Below are positions 1 through 48,845 of a stretch of 64,000 nt of DNA, piece by piece. The notes beneath the pieces are model-generated. The model was given only the letters and a program-made list of their open reading frames with translations. It ran no database searches and was not told the origin of the DNA. The number at the start of each line of letters is the position of its first letter. Position 1 is the first letter of the stretch. The stretch lies in the NCBI RefSeq assembly GCF_030013595.1, contig NZ_CP122768.1; one strand, given 5' to 3'. The translations under genes were made by a program, and so were the position numbers. The DNA is from Escherichia coli. GTDB lineage: Bacteria; Pseudomonadota; Gammaproteobacteria; Enterobacterales; Enterobacteriaceae.

Positions 1-1
1 G

Positions 2-442
2 CTTGATGCTGAAGATCAGGAGGCTGTACGTCAGCATGCTATCGCCGCCCTTAACCTCACGCAGCAGGCCAAGCGTCTTGCCACCGACGATAACGATGGG
101 ACGCTCAATACTGCTCTTATTGACGGAGTGCGTCGCTTTGCGATGGATGTGCGCGATTTAGACATAGACCTTATCGACCGCATCAATCCCTTTGGTGAAG
201 CCTACGCTATCCTTGCTAAGACGATGAGTGAAGACAGTTTGAAGCAGGTCGCGGCGGCAATCTCGGCCAAGCGTACCTCGATCACACCTGAAGATGCCAA
301 GGTGATCGCCAAGCGTGCCGCTGAATTCAAACGTGAACGTGGCCGCCTCCCATCGTTAACTTCGCCGGATGCTTGGGAAAAACACCTTGCTGAAGGTGCA
401 GCTGCGTTTATGCGTTTTAGGGCGGAGGGACGTTATGAATAA
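2..442 (+). CDS. 3' portion of a gene that starts upstream of the window; hypothetical protein
   Basis: Frame of ORF 128..442 stays open back to the window start (LDAEDQEAVRQHAIAAL...); stop TAA 440-442 overlaps the ATG of the next gene (ATGAATAA), suggesting a co-translated pair. Confidence 0.5.
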   Translation, partial: LDAEDQEAVRQHAIAALNLTQQAKRLATDDNDGTLNTALIDGVRRFAMDVRDLDIDLIDRINPFGEAYAILAKTMSEDSLKQVAAAISAKRTSITPEDAKVIAKRAAEFKRERGRLPSLTSPDAWEKHLAEGAAAFMRFRAEGRYE

Positions 443-1613
443 TTCTGATTTAGACGATTTGGCAGCAGAACTTGCCGAGTTTGCACCACCTGAGAAGAAA
501 AAAGGACGTCCAGCCAGCGAGGAACGCATCATAGCCGGTTTTGAAGAGATCCAGCGCTTTACTGAGCAACATGGGCGTGTCCCGCAACATGGCGAAGAGC
601 GTGATATCTTCGAGCGTCTCTATGCAGTGCGGCTCGACCGCCTACGCAGTCTCCCAGACTGCCGTGCCTTGCTAGAGCCACTGGATCATCAGGGCTTATT
701 AGCTGGAGGGGGCGATGTAGCGGAGTCTGCGGACGAAATTATCGATATCGATAACTTGGCTGCCGAACTGGCGGATGTTTCCAGCGAGGACGATATCACG
801 GTCTTGCGTCATGTTCGTGCTAGCACCGAAAAGCGCGTTGTACAAGGAGTTGCGGATCGCAAGCCGTGCGAGGATTTTGATGCGTTCAAACCACTATTTG
901 AGCAGGTACGCAATGATCTAAGTTCAGGGTTAAGAGTGACCCGACCTTTTGGGCAGTATGCAACGATTGAAGTGGGTCATTGGTTTATCCTGGATGGTCA
1001 AACGGCTTATGTGTCTGAGGAAGGTGAAGAGTTCGATTCTCCACAGGGGAAGAAAGATGCTCGGCTGCGTGTCATTTATTCGAATGGTACAGAAAGCAAC
1101 CTACTTCGGCTGTCATTGGTTCGTGCTTTGTATAAAGACGAAACAGCGCGTCGAATTACCGATCCAGACATGGGGCCTTTATTCAGCGATGCTCTAGAAG
1201 AGAGCGATCTAGAAAGTGGCACTATTTATGTGTTGCGTTCGCTATCTGATAACCCTTATGTAGCTGAACATCGTGATGTCATTCACAAGATTGGAGTGAC
1301 TGGCGGCAAAGTAGAGGCGCGTATTGCCAATGCGGAACACGATTCCACCTATCTGTTAGCGAAAGTCGAGGTGGTAGCTTCATACAAGCTTGCAGGCATC
1401 AACAGCACCCGGATGGAAAACCTGTTTCACAGGTTGTTTGCACCCGCAAGGCTTAACATTACCATTAACGACCGTTTCGGCCATCCAGTGCAGCCCGAGG
1501 AATGGTTTCTCGTTCCGTTATTCGTTATCGATGAGGCTGTTGCACGTATTAAGGATGGTAGCATCATTGGGTATGTTTATGACCCCATGTCTGCGAAACT
1601 GGTGAAGGCATAG
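435..1613 (+). CDS. hypothetical protein with GIY-YIG/T5orf172-like motif region
   Basis: ATG 435 preceded by GGAGGGA; 392 aa; segment TIYVLRSLSDNPYVAEHRDVIHKIGVTGGKVEARI resembles the T5orf172 signature (G.VYVL...KIG.T); assignment by motif recall only. Confidence 0.5.
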   Translation: MNNSDLDDLAAELAEFAPPEKKKGRPASEERIIAGFEEIQRFTEQHGRVPQHGEERDIFERLYAVRLDRLRSLPDCRALLEPLDHQGLLAGGGDVAESADEIIDIDNLAAELADVSSEDDITVLRHVRASTEKRVVQGVADRKPCEDFDAFKPLFEQVRNDLSSGLRVTRPFGQYATIEVGHWFILDGQTAYVSEEGEEFDSPQGKKDARLRVIYSNGTESNLLRLSLVRALYKDETARRITDPDMGPLFSDALEESDLESGTIYVLRSLSDNPYVAEHRDVIHKIGVTGGKVEARIANAEHDSTYLLAKVEVVASYKLAGINSTRMENLFHRLFAPARLNITINDRFGHPVQPEEWFLVPLFVIDEAVARIKDGSIIGYVYDPMSAKLVKA

Positions 1614-1639
1614 TGAAGTGACACACTGAATTTGGCCAC

Positions 1640-1672
1640 CTGTTCTGAGGTGAGTATATCACCTCAGAACAG
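1640..1672. terminator. perfect 14-bp inverted repeat hairpin (5-nt loop) 27 bp after the stop of the preceding gene; no T-tract
   Basis: ctgttctgaggtga-gtata-tcacctcagaacag read directly; could be a terminator or a recombination/insertion target. Confidence 0.4.
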
Positions 1673-1841
1673 CACAGGAATAAAAGATACTGATTTGAAT
1701 GTGCCTATACTTTGTGATGTGAGGATCAATGAATAGTAACCTGATCAAGATATGTTACCGTGGTGAGACTGGTGAAAGTGGTGAAAGTGATCTAAGAACA
1801 TTGATACTTGGTGAGATTCTATATATCTCACTATGAAGTGG

Positions 1842-2261
<420 letters not shown>

Positions 2262-2448
2262 GTAAGCGTCGTCTGAGTACCGTCTGGTCCCGAATCCAGG
2301 ATCCTGTAACTTAAGCACCCACTTATTTTGCAGGTGGACACCTCATGCGCACCAAAGAACGACTCCCCCGGAAACGCTATTCTCCTGAATTTAAAATGGA
2401 ACTGGTCAGGCTGGCCCTTGAACAAGATATCACGAACGGTGCAATAGT

Positions 2449-4171
2449 GGTTCTTCCGCAACTTGGGTGGAAGAAAATGGATGAAACTTTCTGGTGAACA
2501 AGGATCTAAGCTGTTTTAAGTTATGGGCAACGCAATGCACTCTCTTAAGACACTTCTACAGTTACCTTGCGGATGGCGATGCAGTCGACAAATTATTAGC
2601 TCTGACGGTATCACCCTCCATCTCCACGGAAAACGCAAAACAGCACAATGTCCTGAATGCTCTAAGCGTAGCGACTCTGTTCATAGTTCTCGTCGGCGCC
2701 GGATACAGCATCTACCCTGCTCCGGGCAGACGCTATGGCTTGTATTTTCCGTCCGCCACTGGTACTGCCGTAACCCGGCTTGTTCACGTAAAATTTTTGC
2801 CGAGTCGCTTGCTCCCTTCGCCGGTTCACACCAGCAGTCTTCACAGGCGTTACAAAATTTACAACGTCAACTGGGATTAATAGCTGGAGGTGAGGCTGGA
2901 AAACGGGCTGCAACGGCAGCGGGTCTCCGTTGCAGTGCTGATACTCTTCTTCGCAGGGTTATCAATACCCCGGAGACGAAACAGTCAGGCGCGCCTCATG
3001 TCGGTATTGATGAGTGGGCGTGGCATCGGGGCCACTGCTGCGGTATGTTAATAGTCAATCTTGATACTCACCGTCCCCTCGTCCTGCTTCCCGGCCGTGA
3101 TCAGCGTACGCTGGCGACCTGGTTCAGAAAATATCCGGAAATACAGGTTGTCTCGCGTGATCGCAGTGGAGTCTATGCGACAGCAGCACGTGAAGGTGCA
3201 CCTCAGGCCAGACAGGTGGCCGATCGATGGCACCTGCTAAAAAATATTGGTGATGAGCCTGAACGAATGATGTACAGACATATACCTCTGATACGTCTTG
3301 TTGCCAGTGAGTTGTCACCAAAGAAATCACCTGAGCCAGAACTGTCTGTGCCTGCAGCATCGCTCCGTCGTCCGGAACGCCTTAAACAGCAAACCCGCAA
3401 AAAACGGCATCAGCGTTGGACAGAGGTTATGGCCCTGCATAACAAGGGATGTAGTTTCAGGGAAATATCCCGTATTACAGGCCTGTCGCGTGTGACAGTC
3501 AGTCGCTGAGTACGTTCAGGAACATTCCCTGAAATGTCAACCCGACCTCCAAAGCGAGGGCTTTTGGACCCATGGAGGGAGTGGTTAAAAGAGCAACGAG
3601 AAAGTGGGAATTATAACGCCAGCCGGATAATGGCGGGAAATGGTGGTCCGGGGGTTTACAGGCAGTGAAACCATTGTCAGGGATACTGTTGCCAAATGGC
3701 GTAAAGGCTGGATCCCACCGGTTACTACTGCCGTCAGACTTCCTTCAGTGTCCCGGGTAAGGCGCTGGTTGATGCCCTGGAGAATAATCAGGGATGAAGA
3801 AAATTATGCTTCCCGATTTATTAGTCTGATGTGTGAAAAAGAACCGGAGCTGAAAATAGCGCAGCAACTGGTACTCGAGTTCTACCGTATTCTGAAAACC
3901 CAAAATAAATCACAGCTTAGCAGCTGGTTCACTCGAGTCCACGAAAGCGGTTCAGCAGAACTTCGGCGCGTGGCTGCGGGGATGGAAGCTGATGCTGCGG
4001 CTATATGTGAGGCAATCAGCAGTCGCTGGAGTAATGGTGTTGTCGAAGGTCATGTAAATCGCCTGAAGATGTTGAAACGCCAGATGTATGGTCGAGCCGG
4101 ATTTGAACTGCTCAGGCAGAGGGTCATGAGTCCACTGGCATGAAAATCTCCACCCAAGTTGCGGAAGAACC
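2449..4171 (+). mobile_element. ISL3-family insertion sequence with ~24-bp terminal inverted repeats, nested inside the IS66 orfA
   Basis: Left end ggttcttccgcaacttgggtggaag (2449-2473) is the reverse complement of the right end ctccacccaagttgcggaagaacc (4148-4171); the transposase reading frames lie between. Confidence 0.7.
2523..4143 (+). pseudogene. ISL3-family transposase, disrupted (at least two frame changes between 3509 and 3640)
   Basis: N-terminal zinc-finger-like CPEC...C..PAC, central GIDEWAWHRGHCCGMLIVNLD...VSRDRSGVY...VADRWHLLKN, C-terminal SNGVVEGHVNRLKMLKRQMYGRAGFELLRQR split across ORFs 2523..3509 and 3640..4143. Confidence 0.65.
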
Positions 4172-4498: not shown

Positions 4499-4864
4499 AT
4501 GATAAATCTTCCCGCAGGCACAAAAATCTGGCTGGTTGCCGGTATCACCGATATGCGCAACGGCTTCAATGGTCTCGCCGCAAAGGTGCAGACAGCGTTG
4601 AAAGATGACCCGATGTCCGGCCACGTCTTCATCTTCCGGGGCCGCAGCGGCAGTCAGGTCAAACTGCTGTGGTCCACCGGCGACGGACTGTGCCTGCTGA
4701 CCAAAAGGCTGGAGCGTGGCCGCTTCGCCTGGCCGTCGACCCGCGATGGCAAAGTGTTCCTGACGCCGGCGCAGCTGGCGATGCTGATGGAAGGTATCGA
4801 CTGGCGACAGCCAAAGCGGTTACTGACGTCCCTGACATGTTGTAGCCCAGGTCTTCTTCGTTGA
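4499..4864 (+). CDS. IS66-family orfB (TnpB-like accessory protein)
   Basis: MINLPAGTKIWLVAGITDMRNGFNGLAAKVQ...FIFRGRSGSQVKLLW...DGLCLLTKRLERGRFAWP matches the conserved IS66 Orf2 family. Confidence 0.75.
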   Translation: MINLPAGTKIWLVAGITDMRNGFNGLAAKVQTALKDDPMSGHVFIFRGRSGSQVKLLWSTGDGLCLLTKRLERGRFAWPSTRDGKVFLTPAQLAMLMEGIDWRQPKRLLTSLTCCSPGLLR

Positions 4865-5684
4865 TAAAGTTCACATCCAGAGGATGGATACTTCCTGTAG
4901 CCCGTAATATCGTCGGTTCAATATCCTGCACATTCATCGGGATCACCGATGCAAGAAAAGCCCATTGATCAGAATAAGGCTGGAAATTAATATCAACAAA
5001 AACGCTTCCCCCCGATGCACGCGGTCTTTTTTGCAGAGGTAACGCGATAAGATTACCAAATCCTCCTTTTGGCATAGTATCCTGATTAGGAAATAATCGG
5101 TCATAAGAACTCAATTGCAGCTGTCGGGTCCGGCTGCACGTATAGCTAATAATAGCAGTCCCCAGACGGCGAGCTTCGCGGGCCGAAACTCGTGAAGCAA
5201 AAAATATCCAGACATGCGCTCCCTGACGTGAGCGGGATATTTCCAGCGCAGCAGGTACACTCAGCTCATCACAGGCTCGCATGAACGCGGATGCATCCTT
5301 CTGCCATTCAGCTTTATCAAAATCAACAGCCAGAAAATAACAGGAATCATCTTCCAGCAACGGATATAACCCGGCAGTATGCGTGCCTGCCAGATGCTGG
5401 TAGATGACAAGATCAGATACAGGGAGTAACTGACGGTGCGTACAGTCCCCGCATTTTATCCGGGGTTTACCGCATATTCTCGCCTGCCATTCGTTAGCGC
5501 AGGCAGGAGAGTACCCTGATTTGCCGCTGGTTTTACTTTCCCAACGAAGGGCCCATATATCATCACGCCCACGAAACAACCGACGAAATAATGCAACCTT
5601 CTCGTCGGTGGATAATACGGAAACGCGCTGCACAGGGCTCGGCGGTTTACGTCGCCATTCCAAGTAATGAGACCAGACGGGCAT
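4850..5684 (-). pseudogene. archaeo-eukaryotic-type primase-polymerase-like protein, N-terminal fragment; C-terminus replaced by the IS66 remnant (boundary approximate)
   Basis: ORF 4659..5684 contains DxD-like YFLAVDFDKAEW and sGxH-like SRQGAHVWIFF motifs plus Cys cluster CGKPRIKCGDC; its last ~60 codons are antisense to IS66 orfB, so the gene is truncated near 4850. Confidence 0.35.
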
Positions 5685-5887: not shown

Positions 5888-6451
5888 TCAGTTGTGTCGT
5901 GGTCGGCCCCGGTTACTTTTTTCGGGAAGCCTGCTACGGCCCAGAATAATACCGTGTTCTTTCTGATCCTGTTTAGCCAGGTAGCTGAGGGCGTAACGTA
6001 AGTCGTCTACCGCGGACTTATCACTATAGTGAATCACGTGATCGATACGCACCGGGTATTTATCTTTAGCCCGGCACAGATGAAAATAACCATCCCCTTC
6101 CGTGATCCGCCTCCAGATATCTCCCAGTTGCCTGGATATCTGATAAGAGTTCTTGTGACGTTGTCCATCCAGGTAGCCGATAAAATGAATATGAAGCCCT
6201 TTGTCTGGTGTATATTCCATAACCCAGTAATATCCTGCCAACATCGTTTGGTTTTCGCTAAGTAAACGGTATATTTCCATACACATACTGTGCTTACAGG
6301 AATGCCCGAAACTGGGCGTGTATTTCCTGTAGGCAAAATCAATTCTGAAAGGTAACAGTTTAGAAAAACGTTGAAACAGACCTTCCATGTGTTCATTCAC
6401 ATCTTTCAGAATCGCGAAATTCATTTCGTAATTGGGATTGGCATTATACAT
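5888..6451 (-). CDS. YagK/YfjJ-family (inovirus Gp2-like) prophage protein
   Basis: 187-aa ORF; resemblance to the YfjJ/YagK C-terminal domain family found in CP4-type cryptic prophages (by recall). Confidence 0.5.
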   Translation of the reverse strand: MYNANPNYEMNFAILKDVNEHMEGLFQRFSKLLPFRIDFAYRKYTPSFGHSCKHSMCMEIYRLLSENQTMLAGYYWVMEYTPDKGLHIHFIGYLDGQRHKNSYQISRQLGDIWRRITEGDGYFHLCRAKDKYPVRIDHVIHYSDKSAVDDLRYALSYLAKQDQKEHGIILGRSRLPEKSNRGRPRHN

Positions 6452-7423: not shown

Positions 7424-8874
7424 TCAGAGGTCAAAGTTAGGTGCGACACACAACGTTTTTCCCTCAATAACCGGTACAACTCTGTTTTGTTCATACAGTA
7501 AATCCAGTAACCAGTTGATTTTATCCTTTTTCCGGAAACGGTTCGGACCACGCTGTAAAATGTCATTTTTTTTCATACAGAGGATCCCCTTCTCAATGCA
7601 ATAGCTTTTTATCCAGTTGAAAAGTTCAAGCTCCTCTGGAATGAGTCGCACAGGTACGGTCAGGGCAGGGTTGTCAAAAGTTAACGGATTAGACAACCGC
7701 ACATACTCATTACCGTACCATATTGCTAATTCTCTCGCCATTTCTGCAATGTAAGGGGAAATCTCCCCCTCCTCACCGCTCGAATGGTAAATAAGTCCTG
7801 CCAGTCTTGCCATATACTCTGCATTTTTAGCAGCATATTCCCGGCAATGTCTTAAAGGCCCCAATCCCCCCAGCTTCGATTCCACATCATTGTAATAATC
7901 CGTCCAGATTCTGGCAGCCTGAGGAGAAAAGTGAAGGCAACGTCGTTCACCACTCATCGCCAGACTTTCATCAATAAGCTCATTGATCCTCTGTTCAAAC
8001 AAATCCTGATACTGTGATGAATAATTATCTCCGGTTATTATCCTTGTCCCCTGCGTTGATGTTGGTTGACACATCAAAAACCTTGCATGATGTCCTGACG
8101 TTTTCACAAGTTCTTTTTTTCGCGTACAAAAACCTTTGTGGTAAACATCAGGCTGAATCATCGCCGACATCGTCAGTCTTGGCTCCTTCAAATTAATTCC
8201 GGGAGATGATTTCCTGTCGATGAAAAGAGAACCTCCATCCCACAAAGTGTTAATAATTCCCAGTTTACTCATGGCCCGGCTGTCAAAAATTCCCCCCCTT
8301 CACTGGATACAAGAGCAAAAGAACGATTGCTATCGGAGTAATATTTTAACATTCCCTCTATCGTTGTCTCATTAAAAATTGTTCGACGTATCTGCGGCGG
8401 AACAGGAGACTTATTCAGATGCGTTTCAAGCTCTGATTCTGTTGCCTTGTAATCTTTACCGGCACGAATCTCTTTATGAAATTTTGATTCCAGCGCTTTT
8501 TGTTTTTGCTCCCATATTTCCTTTTCTGTGCTGTAATTCTCAACCAGTTTCGCGTATTCTTCCGCCAGGGCTTCATCCCTGAGATAAAATGCTTTCATAA
8601 ACACTTTATCCACGGTCGTTTTCCTTTCACCAGAATCAGCCAGAATCAGAGAGTAAAGATTAACAGGCCCACGTAAATTTCCAGGTCTGCACACGTCAAT
8701 CTGATTCTGACAGGCAATTGAGATCGCTGTTAATGCGGATGTCGCCACCATAGCCAAAGGTGCCTGTGTATTTTTTTGAGTTTCAATTATTGCATTTCTC
8801 ACCAGCGGTGGTAGTGCATATATCGGATAAGGATTTTCTGGTGCAAGTAAGCACATAAAAGCCTCTCTTTTCAT
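7424..8874 (-). pseudogene. DUF3987 (YfjI-like) protein split into 201-aa and 282-aa reading frames at a G7 homopolymer/ATGA junction
   Basis: ORFs 8269..8874 and 7424..8272 lie in different frames; coding-strand G7 tract (plus-strand C7 at 8292-8298) sits 20 nt before the junction; adding one G would fuse them into ~483 aa. Confidence 0.55.
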
Positions 8875-9104
8875 TAATGGGTTAGTAAAGTAGCAGCAAC
8901 TCCCGCTATAATAGCGAAATAGCTGCTGTTCAGACCTAATGTTCTGAGAAATACAGAATATCTGTAGATCTGATGTTTAATAAACCGATAAGGTTAATTC
9001 AGTTCATACTGTGTTATTTACCACGAAATATCATTCATGTTTCTCATTCTTAACACCTCCTAAAATTATTTCACTAACACCTTCCCCCCGGTCTTTTTCC
9101 TTTC

Positions 9105-9332
9105 TCAGGAATCAGCCAGAACCATAGTGTAAATATTAACGGGCCCACGTAAATTTCCGGGGTTGCACACGTCAATCTGATTCTGACAGGCAATTGATAT
9201 CGCTGTTAATAATGATGTTGTAGTCATAGCCAGAGATGCTTTTTCATTGTGTTGAGTTTCAATTATTGCATTTCCAGTCATTGATGGTTGCGCATATACT
9301 GGATACGGAGTATCCGGTTTGATGTAAGACAT
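9105..9332 (-). pseudogene. truncated duplicate of the N-terminus of the DUF3987 gene
   Basis: 75-aa ORF ...GNAIIETQHNEKASLAMTTTSLLTAISIACQNQIDVCNPGNLRGPVNIYTMVLADS parallels ...RNAIIETQKNTQAPLAMVATSALTAISIACQNQIDVCRPGNLRGPVNLYSLILADS of ORF 8269..8874. Confidence 0.5.
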
Positions 9333-9437
9333 AAATATTTCCTTTTTTCGTAATAACTTTCGGTTATAGCAGCTATTTCCGCTACAATAGCAACAATAGC
9401 TGCTATACAGACTGGATATACTGAAAATACAGACAGT

Positions 9438-9686
9438 TCATCTGGTCTGTATCCAGCAGAGAAGGTCACTTAACAACCATCCGCAAGATTTCTTTCCGAT
9501 AGACTTACGTGGTGGAAATGTTCCCTCCCGTTCAAGTTTCCACGCTTGTGTACGAGAAATTGACGTGATCTCATATCGTTCCTTTTCACGTACCAGTCTG
9601 TCGCATTCAATCCCATAAGCTTTCAAAATGACCAGACGCTGTTCATCTGTTAATGGAAGCCACATACTACCCTCCTGATATATCAA
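9438..9686 (-). CDS. AlpA-family phage/island transcriptional regulator (HTH)
   Basis: C-terminal ...ITSISRTQAWKLEREGTFPPRKSIGKKSCGWLLSDLLCWI matches the AlpA pattern (helix-turn-helix followed by ...G...W...W); position next to the DUF3987 gene as in CP4-57-type islands. Confidence 0.6.
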   Translation of the reverse strand: MIYQEGSMWLPLTDEQRLVILKAYGIECDRLVREKERYEITSISRTQAWKLEREGTFPPRKSIGKKSCGWLLSDLLCWIQTR

Positions 9687-10355: not shown

Positions 10356-11954
10356 ATGGTAACTCGGACAATGCAACAAAAGTATCAGTATGATCGTGTT
10401 TTATCCGGCGAACTCCACCCATTCCCTGGCATATACGAGGCGGTTTCCGAACAAATCCTTTTGCTCATTTTTAAAGCACGTCAACTATATCAGGATCCAG
10501 AATATCGCCCCTGGTTTGAAGAACAGCACAGAGTACTCTCTGCATTACGTGCCAATACAGAGCTCCTGAGAATCTTTAGAGAACAAAGAAGCGCTGAAGA
10601 ACCAAAGCTTACTATTGAAGAGTCTACCTCCCCCCAACCCACTCCTTCTGCTCTTACAGATGCGCTTAATGTGATGTGCCATTTATACAATGGTTTTGAT
10701 GAAGGAAATATCAGTCTGAAAACTTGGGGGGCGATGCAAGAGGTACAGACAACATCAACCTTTATCAGCCCAGGACCGAGAACCTGGAAAACACCTGAAC
10801 TGGCAAAGTTTGTAGGAGATGATTTATTTAATATTCTGACTGAATGTAAGGCCTGGAGTTCACCAATTCCAGCAGAAACCCGACAGGGGTATTGCCATCA
10901 GGATCTGTCTGTTGCACACTCCTGCACCTCAGAGTTACTGGCACACCTGAATCAATATCATGAAATTGATGAATCAGCAATACTTGCCAGAGTTATTGGT
11001 ATAACAGTTAACGGATTCTACAAGAAAAATAATACAGACCTTCCAGAATGGCTATCCCCCTTTAAAGAGGAACATAAAATATTCAGAGATTGTCCGGAGC
11101 AAAATACCGGGGATGTAATCAGACGGAAAGAACAACTGTTGAAAACAGGACGTACAGAATTCGTGAATAATTTGTGTCGGGTCGCCAACTGGTATGAAAT
11201 TGAGTCAATATACGATGAATACGTCCGTCTTTATGCCAATGAAATCATTGACTGGTTCAACAAAACCATGAAGTATTTTAAACCAACAGATTTTATCCGA
11301 TATACATGGAAATTCGCAACAGTTACTCCGGATAAAGATACAGAAACCGGGCATACAACTGCATGGGAAAAGGATTATTGCCAGATAACCATACAACGTG
11401 ATGAACTTCTGAGGTTGATTCACACCAATACCCTTCAGGATGCAGTAATTTATCTTTGTCATTGTCTACAGAAGGAATACAAGAAATCATCCCAAAATGA
11501 GATAGAGTTCCCAGGAATAAAACCTCCGACATCAGAGAGTAAAATTAATATAACAAATAATATTAAATTTCATTCTCTCCTGGAGCTCAGTAAAGATAAT
11601 GAGAAGCGTCTGGAAACATTTCAAAAATGGTATGAAAAAAATAAAGTTTTGTTAGAAAGTCATAAACAAAAACGAACAGAGAAGATTGACGTTGCCGTAC
11701 GACTTGTAGGGCTGAAAGCCTATGATCTGCATGAAGGGATTCCGGATAGTCCAAAACGAAAAGTTAAAGATGGCATAAATGAAGACATCAAAGCCGATAC
11801 CAGTTTACGCCTGTCAAAGACAAATATAAGTGATACGTCGCTAAACCGTTATCGCCGCACTGTTAAGGAGATTATCAATAACGAAATTGACGCATTCCTG
11901 TTGGAACAGAAGAAAAAAATAAAAGATTTCCCTACAGTGAAGATAGAGATGTGA
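10356..11954 (+). CDS. hypothetical protein, 532 aa, AT-rich island cargo gene; no recognisable domain
   Basis: Long ATG-initiated ORF with no stops in a visibly AT-rich block, preceded by ~670 bp of AT-rich non-coding DNA; lysine-rich C-terminal third. Confidence 0.6.
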   Translation: MVTRTMQQKYQYDRVLSGELHPFPGIYEAVSEQILLLIFKARQLYQDPEYRPWFEEQHRVLSALRANTELLRIFREQRSAEEPKLTIEESTSPQPTPSALTDALNVMCHLYNGFDEGNISLKTWGAMQEVQTTSTFISPGPRTWKTPELAKFVGDDLFNILTECKAWSSPIPAETRQGYCHQDLSVAHSCTSELLAHLNQYHEIDESAILARVIGITVNGFYKKNNTDLPEWLSPFKEEHKIFRDCPEQNTGDVIRRKEQLLKTGRTEFVNNLCRVANWYEIESIYDEYVRLYANEIIDWFNKTMKYFKPTDFIRYTWKFATVTPDKDTETGHTTAWEKDYCQITIQRDELLRLIHTNTLQDAVIYLCHCLQKEYKKSSQNEIEFPGIKPPTSESKINITNNIKFHSLLELSKDNEKRLETFQKWYEKNKVLLESHKQKRTEKIDVAVRLVGLKAYDLHEGIPDSPKRKVKDGINEDIKADTSLRLSKTNISDTSLNRYRRTVKEIINNEIDAFLLEQKKKIKDFPTVKIEM

Positions 11955-12985: not shown

Positions 12986-13061
12986 TGGTGCCGATAATAG
13001 GAGTCGAACCTACGACCTTCGCATTACGAATGCGCTGCTCTACCAACTGAGCTATATCGGC
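12986..13061 (-). tRNA. thrW: tRNA-Thr (anticodon CGU), thrW-like; island integration site at its 3' end
   Basis: Reverse complement reads GCCGATATAGCTCAGTTGGTAGAGCAGCGCATTCGTAATGCGAAGGTCGTAGGTTCGACTCCTATTATCGGCACCA: cloverleaf-compatible, anticodon loop ttCGTaa, CCA end. Confidence 0.93.
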
Positions 13062-39415: not shown

Positions 39416-39447
39416 TGCCGGATGCGGCGTGAACTTATCCGGCCTAC
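39416..39447. repeat. REP element between lfgG and lfgF
   Basis: tgccggatgcggcgtgaacttatccggcctac. Confidence 0.75.
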
Positions 39448-44026: not shown

Positions 44027-45451
44027 ATGTCTGAATTTGAATTGCTCGTGAAAGATCTTCTTTTAAAATCAGAAGAAGACGAGAAAAAGCGACAAGAAAA
44101 AGATCGAGAATTAATTTCAAAGGTTCTTGAAATCTATGATCAAAAATATGTTGCAGAACTCCTACGAAAAGTAGGAAAAAATGAATGGAGCAGAGAAACA
44201 CTTAACCGTTGGATAAATGGTAAGTGTAACCCTAAACAATTAACTTCTGCTGAGGAAACTTTACTTCGAAAGATGCTTCCAGAACCTCCCGAACATCATC
44301 CTAACTATACATTTCGTTTTATTGATTTATTCGCAGGGATTGGTGGTATTCGTAAAGGCTTCGAAAATATTGGTGGGCAGTGTGTTTTTACTAGCGAATG
44401 GAATAAAGAAGCGGTAAGAACCTACAAAGCTAATTGGTTTAATGATGAACTAAATCATAAATTTAATCTTGATATACGAGAAGTCACTTTAAGTGATAGA
44501 GATGATGTTTCCGAAATGGAAGCCTATAATCATATAGACAAAAATATTCCAGATCATGATGTCCTTCTGGCCGGTTTTCCATGTCAGCCCTTTAGTCTGG
44601 CTGGGGTAAGCAAGAAAAATTCTCTGGGGCGTGCACATGGTTTTGAATGTGAGGCACAAGGAACACTATTTTTTGATGTCGCTCGAATTATTAAATCAAA
44701 AAAACCAGCTATTTTTGTGCTTGAGAATGTGAAGAACCTTAAAAGTCATGATAAAGGTAAGACTTTTAAAGTCATCATGGAAACACTCAATGAATTAGGG
44801 TATGAAGTCGCCGATGCTGGTGTGACTGGCTCAGATGATCCTAAAATTATAGATGGAAAACATTTTTTACCCCAACATCGTGAGCGTATAGTGTTGGTAG
44901 GATTTCGTAGGGATCTAAATATTCACAAGGATTTCACGTTACGAAATATTAACCGCTTTTACCCTCAAAACAGGCCAACATTTGGTGAATTATTAGATCA
45001 TGATGTTGACGACAAATATATTTTGACTCCAAGGTTATGGGAATATCTTTACAATTATGCAAAAAAACATGCAGCAAAAGGAAATGGATTTGGTTTTGGT
45101 TTAGTGGATCCTAAAAATCCAGATAGTATCGCACGAACGCTGTCTGCTCGTTACCATAAAGATGGCTCTGAAATACTGATCGATCGTGGCTGGGATAAGG
45201 CTGTCGGTGAAATCGATTTTAGTAATCCAGCGAATCAAGAGAATCGACCAAGAAGACTGACACCTCATGAATGTGCCAGGTTAATGGGTTTTGAAAAACC
45301 AGGGGGAAGACCTTTTAGAATACCTGTATCAGATACTCAAGCTTATAGACAATTTGGGAACTCAGTTGTTGTGCCAGTATTTGAAGCTGTAGCAAGATTA
45401 CTAGAACCGTACATACAAAAGGCTGTCAGCATGCAAGTTATTAACGATTAA
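44027..45451 (+). CDS. DNA (cytosine-5)-methyltransferase, Dcm/M.EcoRII-like (predicted CCWGG specificity)
   Basis: 474 aa with motifs [15 protein letters not shown] (I), [10 protein letters not shown] (IV), ENVKNL (VI), [10 protein letters not shown] (X); collinear with E. coli Dcm as recalled; ACGGGGG RBS; AT-rich compared with flanking flagellar genes. Confidence 0.85.
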
Positions 45452-45474
45452 TAATAATTAACTTTCACTATTGT

Positions 45475-45498
45475 GAGGCCTTTTTTATTAAAGGCCTC
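45475..45498. terminator. bidirectional hairpin between the convergent methyltransferase and endonuclease genes
   Basis: gaggccttttttattaaaggcctc perfect stem-loop in the 87-bp convergent intergenic region. Confidence 0.6.
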
Positions 45499-45538
45499 TA
45501 AATATATAATCATAAGTTATTATAAGTATACTTTTATA

Positions 45539-46744
45539 TTATATAAAATCTTCATACAGCGTTATTAACTGTGTGATAAAACCCTCTAACGTTAATAATC
45601 CATCCCTGATTTCCTCCGGATATTTTTTATGAAGAGGGGAAGGTACAACCAAGGTGACACCTTCAGCTCTCATTTCGTTAAATTGAGCAACTGAGACACC
45701 CTCTTGTAAGGTAAACAAATATATTTTGTTGATTTTATTTGCTTCATTGAGTGCCTGACGCCACCGATCCTTACATGTTGTTTTTACAGCAAGCATACGG
45801 AGTTTTTCTCTTGGAAAGTGATCATCATGGTAAGCTGCCGCTGATGGAAAAAGAAAATCGGGTTTCTTTTTTCCTTCAGTAATACATTGAGTAGCAAAAT
45901 GATGCAGTCCATGCTCAATAAAAATTTGCTCAAGATGTAGCTCCAGTGATTTCCCGGCTCGAGATTTTCTTCGATTACTAACAGAGTTAGCCATAGCTAT
46001 AAAATCATCTACAGAACCAAACCCTTGACGGATGATGTCCAGTACGTGAATTTCTTCAACCATTAGAAAGAGATCATATTCAATACGGCGGCGTTCTAAA
46101 AGTTGGTCATCTGGACTGGTTACGCCTGTTGGGTAATAACCCGCAGCATATTGAATAATCTCTAAGCCAGAAGGAAAGCTATGTTTCCAGCTTTCCGGAA
46201 TAACATATTCCTTTTGAGAGATTTTTGGCCTTGATGCGAGTACACCAAGTATTTCACTGGCAGGCCCAAACATTAAAGTTCCAGGAATGATCTCCCCAAT
46301 AGCTGATTCCAGTACATCCTCTTCTTCTGGGCTAACACAAACCCATACATCAACACTTTTGCTGTCTCTCCCTGGCTCATGTTCAAACGCAAGCACAGAC
46401 AAAGCACCTGTATTTTCCGGATCCTGTAGGGGACTGCCAGCCCCCCACCGAGTGATGCGTTTTTCATTTCTTGTTTGCCCGAAATACTTATTATTGTAGT
46501 AAATAGCGCGAACCTCACTGTCTACACATTCATGAGAGGAATAAGTTGCGCGCAATAAAACCGAAGGATTTTTTTCTGACGTATGATCTATAGATGGGAA
46601 AAGTTCAGCGACGATACCAGAAGGGATATATACCCCCACTTGATGCCCTCCTGTTGCACCAGTGTCGTTTGCTGAAAGACGTTTAATATAGAGATAGTTG
46701 TTACCACCGACCTTATCAAGCAGCCAATCTTGTAATCCTGACAT
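45539..46744 (-). CDS. type II restriction endonuclease, EcoRII-like
   Basis: 401 aa; N-terminal ...YIKRLSANDTGATGGHQVGVYIPSGIV... and overall collinearity with R.EcoRII as recalled; convergent partner of a Dcm-like methylase. Confidence 0.65.
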   Translation of the reverse strand: MSGLQDWLLDKVGGNNYLYIKRLSANDTGATGGHQVGVYIPSGIVAELFPSIDHTSEKNPSVLLRATYSSHECVDSEVRAIYYNNKYFGQTRNEKRITRWGAGSPLQDPENTGALSVLAFEHEPGRDSKSVDVWVCVSPEEEDVLESAIGEIIPGTLMFGPASEILGVLASRPKISQKEYVIPESWKHSFPSGLEIIQYAAGYYPTGVTSPDDQLLERRRIEYDLFLMVEEIHVLDIIRQGFGSVDDFIAMANSVSNRRKSRAGKSLELHLEQIFIEHGLHHFATQCITEGKKKPDFLFPSAAAYHDDHFPREKLRMLAVKTTCKDRWRQALNEANKINKIYLFTLQEGVSVAQFNEMRAEGVTLVVPSPLHKKYPEEIRDGLLTLEGFITQLITLYEDFI

Positions 46745-46797: not shown

Positions 46798-46831
46798 CAG
46801 AACGACCAGAACGACCAGAACGACCAGAACC
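46798..46831. repeat. tandem 9-bp repeat (CAGAACGAC, three full copies plus one partial) in the endonuclease/lfgM divergent region
   Basis: cag-aacgaccag-aacgaccag-aacgaccag-aacc read directly, 54-87 bp upstream of the endonuclease ATG. Confidence 0.9.
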
Positions 46832-48729: not shown

Positions 48730-48845
48730 CCCCTCACCCTAACCCTCTCCCCAAAGGGGCGAGGGAACCGATCGAGCACGGTGTTAAAATCGGCGCTGGT
48801 TTTCTCCCCTCTCCCTGTGGGAGAGGGTCGGGGTGAGGGCATCAG
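48730..48845. repeat. GC-rich composite palindromic intergenic repeat, copy C
   Basis: ccctcaccctaaccctctccccaaaggggcgagggaacc ... cccctctccctgtgggagagggtcggggtgaggg, same orientation as copy B. Confidence 0.7.

Follow-up and report, generated by a model that had tools for sequence, protein, structure and literature searches.

DUF3987 proteins have been predicted to act as replicative helicases in phages and other mobile elements; they would belong to superfamily 6, related to MCM, and usually have a primase partner (PMC4889955, PMC5862659). One member of the family, AgaPH, has proved to be a 5'-3' helicase that depends on ATP and binds its primase-polymerase (PMC11724360). Closer to the gene analyzed here are the YfjI island proteins of PF13148, such as WP_021519321.1 and YfjI of prophage CP4-57. 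The gene that we found in a 64-kb stretch of an E. coli chromosome (the window, meaning the whole stretch analyzed) has the same sequence as these bar one deleted base, and it stands in the same neighbourhood of an AlpA-type regulator, a 5' DUF3987 fragment, YfjI and YagK/YfjJ. Yet, compared with intact YfjI, the frame of the window copy is broken at codon 189 and the single 477-aa product cannot be made. With AgaPH, a PriCT-DUF3987 protein (PMC11724360), and the phage DUF3987/SF6 helicases (PMC4889955) it has the DUF3987 ATPase core and the Walker A and B motifs in common; an MCM-like fold is predicted for it, and the yfjI module includes a primase-polymerase gene just as AgaPH is associated with a primase-polymerase. 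However, AgaPH carries a PriCT domain that YfjI lacks, the window copy is disrupted, and ATP-dependent helicase activity, shown for AgaPH only (PMC11724360), is a prediction in the case of YfjI.

Frameshifted yfjI copies annotated by PGAP are also on record: Ec42, HB37, ETEC1746 and EcN_Sk with a run of six G (G6), NCTC86 and SCU-104 with G8, B-2207 with G9 and strain 48 with an A8 to A7 change. Like the window copy they show single-base frameshifts, mostly at the same G run, and they are annotated as pseudogenes; these alleles change the length of a homopolymer, whereas the window keeps its G7 and loses the flanking T. The contingency genes of Neisseria, Haemophilus and Campylobacter undergo homopolymer-driven phase variation. 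The locus resembles them in having a poly-G run in the coding region at which length changes shift the frame, but it differs in that the tract is short, the share of out-of-frame copies is about 1% and the product is an element replication helicase, not a surface or restriction-modification function. Our analysis places the locus in an already known family, as an ordinary pseudogene made by a frameshift or else as an error of the consensus.

A split yfjI gene in the thrW island

The window is E. coli chromosome, with thrW, proA, proB and phoE followed by the lateral-flagella (Flag-2) cluster, and everything to the left of thrW is a genomic island. The minus strand of the island carries, in this order, the AlpA-type gene, the DUF3987 fragment, yfjI, the YagK/YfjJ gene and the primase-polymerase gene (Table 1). 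Based on the ORF list and Pfam, both DUF3987/YfjI halves lie on the minus strand as ORF1 and ORF2. ORF1 matches DUF3987 profile positions 1-159 (143.7 bits) and ORF2 positions 168-363 (128.6 bits), which by Pfam score places both in PF13148, whose gathering cut-off is 27. A single continuous ORF of about 460-520 aa over the whole DUF3987 domain is absent, the gene being split at codon 189.

Table 1. Positions in the window of yfjI, its parts and its neighbours
Feature	Position	Strand	Comment
Frameshifted yfjI (DUF3987, MCM-like helicase, predicted)	7424..8874	-	1 deleted base vs WP_021519321.1; Pfam matches in both halves
ORF1, N-terminal piece	8269..8874	-	201 aa from first ATG; Walker A (SGERKT) and Walker B ([S/D]E186)
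ORF2, C-terminal piece	7424..8272	-	282 aa; starts at internal Met196 codon
G7 run	8292..8298	-	C7 on + strand; Gly187 and Gly188 codons plus first base of Val189 in the intact gene
Missing-base site	8291..8292	-	Intact orthologs have T (A on + strand) between both positions
ATGA overlap of ORF1 stop with ORF2 start	8269..8272	-	Out-of-frame TGA over Met196 codon
Archaeo-eukaryotic primase-polymerase	4659..5684	-	PADLOC PrimPol, 2.2e-128
YagK/YfjJ (inovirus Gp2-type)	5888..6451	-	Downstream of yfjI
75-aa DUF3987 fragment	9105..9332	-	Partial duplicate of yfjI 5' end; kept in related islands
AlpA-type HTH regulator/excisionase	9438..9665	-	Head of module; phrog_2790, 5.8e-23
tRNA-Thr (CGT), thrW	12986..13061	-	Island/chromosome boundary next to proA

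The RefSeq start used in the orthologs falls at position 8856 of the window, and the first ATG of ORF1 at 8874. ORF2 reads in the -1 frame with respect to ORF1, and any one-base insertion between the out-of-frame TGA just 5' of the run and the ORF1 stop fuses the two; the product is 483 aa long if translation begins at the upstream ATG and 477 aa long if it begins at the annotated start. ORF1 closes with seven out-of-frame residues, EFLTAGP, followed by the TGA stop. ORF2 holds the remaining AAA+ core and the C-terminal helical/winged-helix region, and its protein is identical to the C-terminus of an intact ortholog (P0001); 28 of 50 homologs have Met at its initiating position, 196. An earlier sequence-only reading of this DNA had described a DUF3987 (YfjI-like) gene read as 201-aa and 282-aa ORFs in different frames and joined at an ATGA stop/start junction. 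All of these elements are present on the minus strand, with the junction at 8272..8269, and its arithmetic that one extra G would fuse the ORFs into a protein of ~483 aa is correct. The G7 run that it placed 20 nt before the junction is there too, although 19 nt separate it from the ATG. No other G or C homopolymer of at least 7 occurs in the 64-kb window.

The intact ortholog matches phrog_2373 'DNA helicase' (9e-62); YfjI had no match in NCBIfam or PADLOC, and a sequence search of the PDB with it returned nothing meaningful. An AlphaFold model of the intact ortholog, made with a 50-sequence alignment, reached a mean pLDDT of 90.6, and its top Foldseek matches in the PDB were MCM2-7 and archaeal MCM (probability 1.0, E about 3e-4; TM-scores modest, about 0.37). 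The predicted model has the MCM-like AAA+ (superfamily 6) fold, which accords with PMC4889955. Both nucleotide-binding motifs lie within ORF1: a Walker A-like SGERKT, in which R78 and K79 are invariant in the 50-sequence alignment, and a Walker B [S/D]E, whose E186 is kept in 49 of the 50 sequences and sits in the model at the end of strand 179-184. By its modelled fold and by analogy, YfjI belongs to the MCM-like AAA+ helicases found in mobile elements, with predicted helicase activity. The frameshift at codon 189 comes three residues past E186. Neither ORF encodes the conserved hydrophobic segment VIFDSRA (residues 189-195), and the near-invariant N203, W206, G208, R215, Q235, R259 and R272, among others, are cut off from the nucleotide-binding motifs. 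From this position of the break in sequence and model, the split gene would be non-functional and a working two-piece enzyme of ORF1 plus ORF2 is unlikely.

Other parts of the island show decay. The PrimPol coding sequence is annotated in E. coli 2022H047, whose island is near-identical, as a frameshifted, C-terminally incomplete pseudogene, and the annotation beyond it lists IS66 tnpB and an ISL3 transposase gene. In the window the ISL3-family transposase gene (2523-4143, plus strand) carries a TGG to TGA change at 3507-3509 and an extra A (+1) at 3629. The two islands differ at 25 sites, 14 of them within 3509-3795, a 290-bp patch that looks like recombination from another degenerate IS copy. 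The interval 9036-9466 is a diverged copy of 8560-8990 (minus strand), that is, of the yfjI leader and first ~75 codons, about 375-430 bp upstream; the identity is 77% by BLAST and 84% as mean column identity with MAFFT. Related islands have this 5' duplicate annotated as an incomplete pseudogene or as the 65-aa protein WP_000579535.1. A second 1-nt deletion lies ~3.6 kb from the yfjI lesion, in the ORF at 10356..11954 (plus strand), where the window has A7 at 11913-11919 against A8 in 306 of the 307 records with an ortholog. With one A less, the last ~13 codons read differently and the protein measures 532 aa vs 545 aa. A7 is shared by strain 48 only, in which the gene is annotated as frameshifted; the strain 48 assembly itself has many homopolymer indels, and therefore the A7 site could be error-prone too. 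A promoter and terminator scan around yfjI stayed at shuffle level. The CFT073 copy of the gene lies in an integrase-AlpA-YfjI-YfjJ island with cargo genes.

At the left end of the window (1-2400) we noticed a GIY-YIG nuclease gene, which in the closest genome has a DEAD/DEAH-box helicase gene just upstream. The two could be a defence-type gene pair of the island; the GIY-YIG nuclease ORF had no match in PADLOC. On the chromosomal side, genes for a DNA cytosine methyltransferase and a type II restriction endonuclease (44027-46744) are placed in the Flag-2 cluster between flgA and flgM, an arrangement common to related genomes. Between the endonuclease gene and flgM, at 46798-46830, there is a perfect 9-nt tandem repeat, CAGAACGAC, of 3.7 copies, in which the window is 18 nt (two units) longer than HCP5S3_I2 and 2022H047. 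Against both comparison genomes, deletions of 3 nt and 2 nt occur at 39434 and 41455 in REP-like palindromic elements, GCCGGATGCGGCGTGAACGCCTTATCCGGCCT. The sole single-base indels vs HCP5S3_I2 in the 51-kb core are at 48806 and 58660, in C-runs where the window has one base more. The first of them is just upstream of the annotated start of a glycosyltransferase gene in the relative, and the adjoining gene is annotated in the relative as frameshifted; the reference may therefore be the one in error.

One missing base beside the G7 run

The nearest island, that of E. coli 2022H047 (99.7% over 14 kb), has an intact yfjI of 1,434 nt encoding the 'YfjI family protein' WP_021519321.1 of 477 aa. Global alignment of the two genes revealed a sole difference, a T absent from the window at gene position 584. 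Over the 1,451 nt of the gene nothing but this T differs, and over 2.7 kb there is one further difference, private to the 2022H047 reference. The intact gene reads GAA GGG GGG GTA ATT TTT GAC AGC CGG GCC ATG AGT (E-G-G-V-I-F-D-S-R-A-M-S) where the window reads GAA GGG GGG GAA TTT TTG ACA GCC GGG CCA TGA; at 8289-8299 the form without the deletion is GGGGGGGTAA and the deletion form is GGGGGGGAA. Window and intact ortholog alike have G7, and the length of the tract is unchanged. The suggestion that G8 would be the correct sequence, with a lesion in tract length, does not hold, as the expected sequence is G7 followed by T. A G8 repair would fuse the ORFs but place Gly at codon 189, where 39 of 50 homologs have V, L, I or T and none of the 50 has Gly. 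Because both sequences have G7, the T is lost and the first out-of-frame TGA falls over the Met196 codon, the ATGA 'junction' is a by-product of the frameshift, its first out-of-frame stop, and not a designed stop/start.

Tract alleles among orthologs

Allele-specific queries of 79-82 nt were run against a set of 5,426 complete E. coli genomes, and a match was counted when it was exact; about 1,110 records have the gene. Queries of this length were chosen because the BLAST low-complexity filter would mask G7 in short ones. The intact allele, G7-T, was matched by its exact 81-mer in 955 of the about 1,110 records (86%). G6-T was found in 8 records (HB37, Ec42, ETEC1746, ETEC1747, ETEC4085, EcN_Sk, PEC1011 and EC7072022BGR), G8-T in 2 (NCTC86 and SCU-104) and G9-T in 1 (B-2207), so that the tract departs from G7 in 11 records (about 1%) and about 99% are in frame at the tract. 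All the G6, G8 and G9 copies that we inspected are annotated 'frameshifted'. G6 alleles turn up in two flank backgrounds and in islands of two types, and are therefore independent events. Most of the other 144 records appear to carry substitutions; in a sampled case, strain 48, the run is interrupted (GGAGGGG-T). The window allele, G7 with no T, was matched by none of the about 1,110 E. coli complete-genome records. A gap-tolerant pattern had no hit in the genomes of GTDB species representatives. Among 39 metagenome contigs, 36 have G7-TA and 3 have same-length substitutions, with no T deletion or length change at the tract.

A collection of 15 billion proteins gave a similar picture. The intact protein P0001, which reads through as E-G-G-V-I-F-D-S-R-A-M, is found there in 223 contigs, the G6 product (ending ...SSEGG) in 8 and 6 contigs in two backgrounds and the G8 product in 2 contigs; on exact look-up the 201-, 195- and 282-aa products of the window and the T-deletion product in the second background were absent from it. 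A cluster representative of 282 aa with 1,034 members (P0018) was considered as a recurrent C-terminal product and rejected: it is an N-terminal partial, in frame through the tract, and its equal length is a coincidence. Other disruptions of yfjI are common, among them the A8 to A7 frameshift of strain 48, the SCU-104 copy that ends beside an IS4-family element and a 250-aa truncated form present in 188 contigs.

Taken across these records, the G7 run behaves as a recurrent, low-frequency (about 1%) frameshift site, a mild hot spot in this gene family and not a switch, and the window allele is a singleton of a different kind from G6, G8 and G9. We also observed that records labelled as the same strain, or as closely similar ones, disagree at the tract: Nissle 1917 has G7 and EcN_Sk G6, NCTC86 has G8 and the near-identical B-2207 locus G9. 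Either the tract is unstable in culture or the homopolymer was missequenced.

Deletion, consensus error or designed element

The explanation that we consider probable is a recent, inactivating deletion private to this strain, in a thrW island that is degenerating. ORF1 and ORF2 are the halves of one yfjI, the helicase gene of an AlpA-YfjI-YfjJ-PrimPol module, from which one base, the T directly 3' of G7 in codon Val189, would have been lost. The frame would shift three residues past the Walker B glutamate and run through seven wrong codons to stop at the TGA over the Met196 codon, and the outcome would be a recently formed pseudogene in an already decaying island. The lesion is edge-on to the sole G/C run of at least 7 in the window, and is therefore no chance juxtaposition; misalignment at the run boundary may have produced the deletion. 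Loss of a run-flanking base is known to result when a misincorporation is followed by realignment of the primer onto the run.

That the deletion is genuine, and not an assembly error, is something we infer rather than show directly. The main competitor is that the strain is truly intact (G7-T) and that its consensus dropped one base at a homopolymer boundary, which we regard as rather unlikely but well above the remaining proposals. It agrees with the window allele being a singleton among about 1,150 orthologous copies, with the contact between the lesion and the only such run in 64 kb, with the disagreement at the tract between assemblies named as the same or closely similar strains and with the shortened A-run 3.6 kb away; the yfjI gene is otherwise identical to the intact allele, and this lack of further degeneration is what an error would give too. 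However, homopolymer artefacts normally alter the length of the run, as in G6, G8 and G9, and here G7 is kept and the unique flanking T is gone. The 51 kb of adjacent core show no single-base deletion against the 99.9% relative HCP5S3_I2, from which they have two 1-nt differences only, both in C-runs in which the window is longer. At two other indel sites vs 2022H047 the window agrees with other genomes, and error alone offers no easy account of two deletions in 13 kb of island. Both the 'inactivating mutation' and the 'sequencing error' listed in the sequence-only reading remain the live explanations; its slippage-prone switch and its coupled two-protein form fared worse.

As a switch, G7 would be a slippage-prone contingency tract that turns the helicase ON (fused) or OFF (split), with a G7 to G8 change returning the window allele to frame. 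We hold this to be very improbable. Tract length does vary in public assemblies, with recurrent events spread over two backgrounds and two island types, truncated G6 and G8 products occur in read-archive assemblies as well, and the frame of the window allele is indeed restorable by G7 to G8. But the comparison of tract length among orthologous islands, run here as the reading had proposed, set 11 length variants against 955 exact intact copies; the lesion of the window is not itself a change in tract length; the G8 revertant would be V189G, with the glycine at a hydrophobic position where homologs have none; and the inspected out-of-frame alleles are annotated as pseudogenes. In E. coli with working mismatch repair, seven G make a short tract for a contingency locus. 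The locus does have a homopolymer within an ORF, but it has neither an ON/OFF state set by tract length nor frequent length polymorphism. More speculative still is a low-rate version, in which the run silences and re-awakens island replication and the T-deletion allele, a silenced state, is rescued by G7 to G8 or by -1 slippage, ribosomal or transcriptional, to yield a V189G helicase.

Least probable of all is a functional split, by coupling at ATGA or by a -1 slip of the ribosome or the transcribing polymerase on the G run that yields the full-length protein: the ATGA overlap would permit termination-reinitiation, and P-site tRNA-Gly could, from the sequence, re-pair perfectly one base back in G7, but no ortholog conserves the split, all being single in-frame ORFs, the break falls inside the AAA+ core with residues 189-195 missing from both pieces, the in-frame heptamer is A-GGG-GGG and not the canonical X-XXY-YYZ, a 101-nt stretch starting at the tract folds no more stably than its shuffled versions (z = +0.51), giving no stable downstream RNA structure, and the 19 nt that precede the ATG show no evident Shine-Dalgarno-like sequence. 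The pair has the stop/start overlap of coupled genes but not a complete unit in each ORF or a conserved pairing, and it has neither the conserved two-frame arrangement nor the slippery heptamer and stimulatory structure of programmed frameshifts. Incidental low-level leakiness that is not designed, through ATGA reinitiation or a -1 tRNA-Gly slip in G7, is possible.

For annotation, with the inactivating deletion as the preferred reading, the locus is to be entered as one frameshifted yfjI pseudogene rather than two genes, and the lesion described as a T lost after G7 and not as a change in G-tract length; beyond annotation it has little significance. The G7 run, carried in a widespread helicase gene of islands, is a useful sentinel for homopolymer errors, because it is a recurrent frameshift site and because assemblies named as the same or closely similar strains disagree there. 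For the family, frameshifting at the G run is one of several routes by which this mobile-element replication gene is repeatedly lost.
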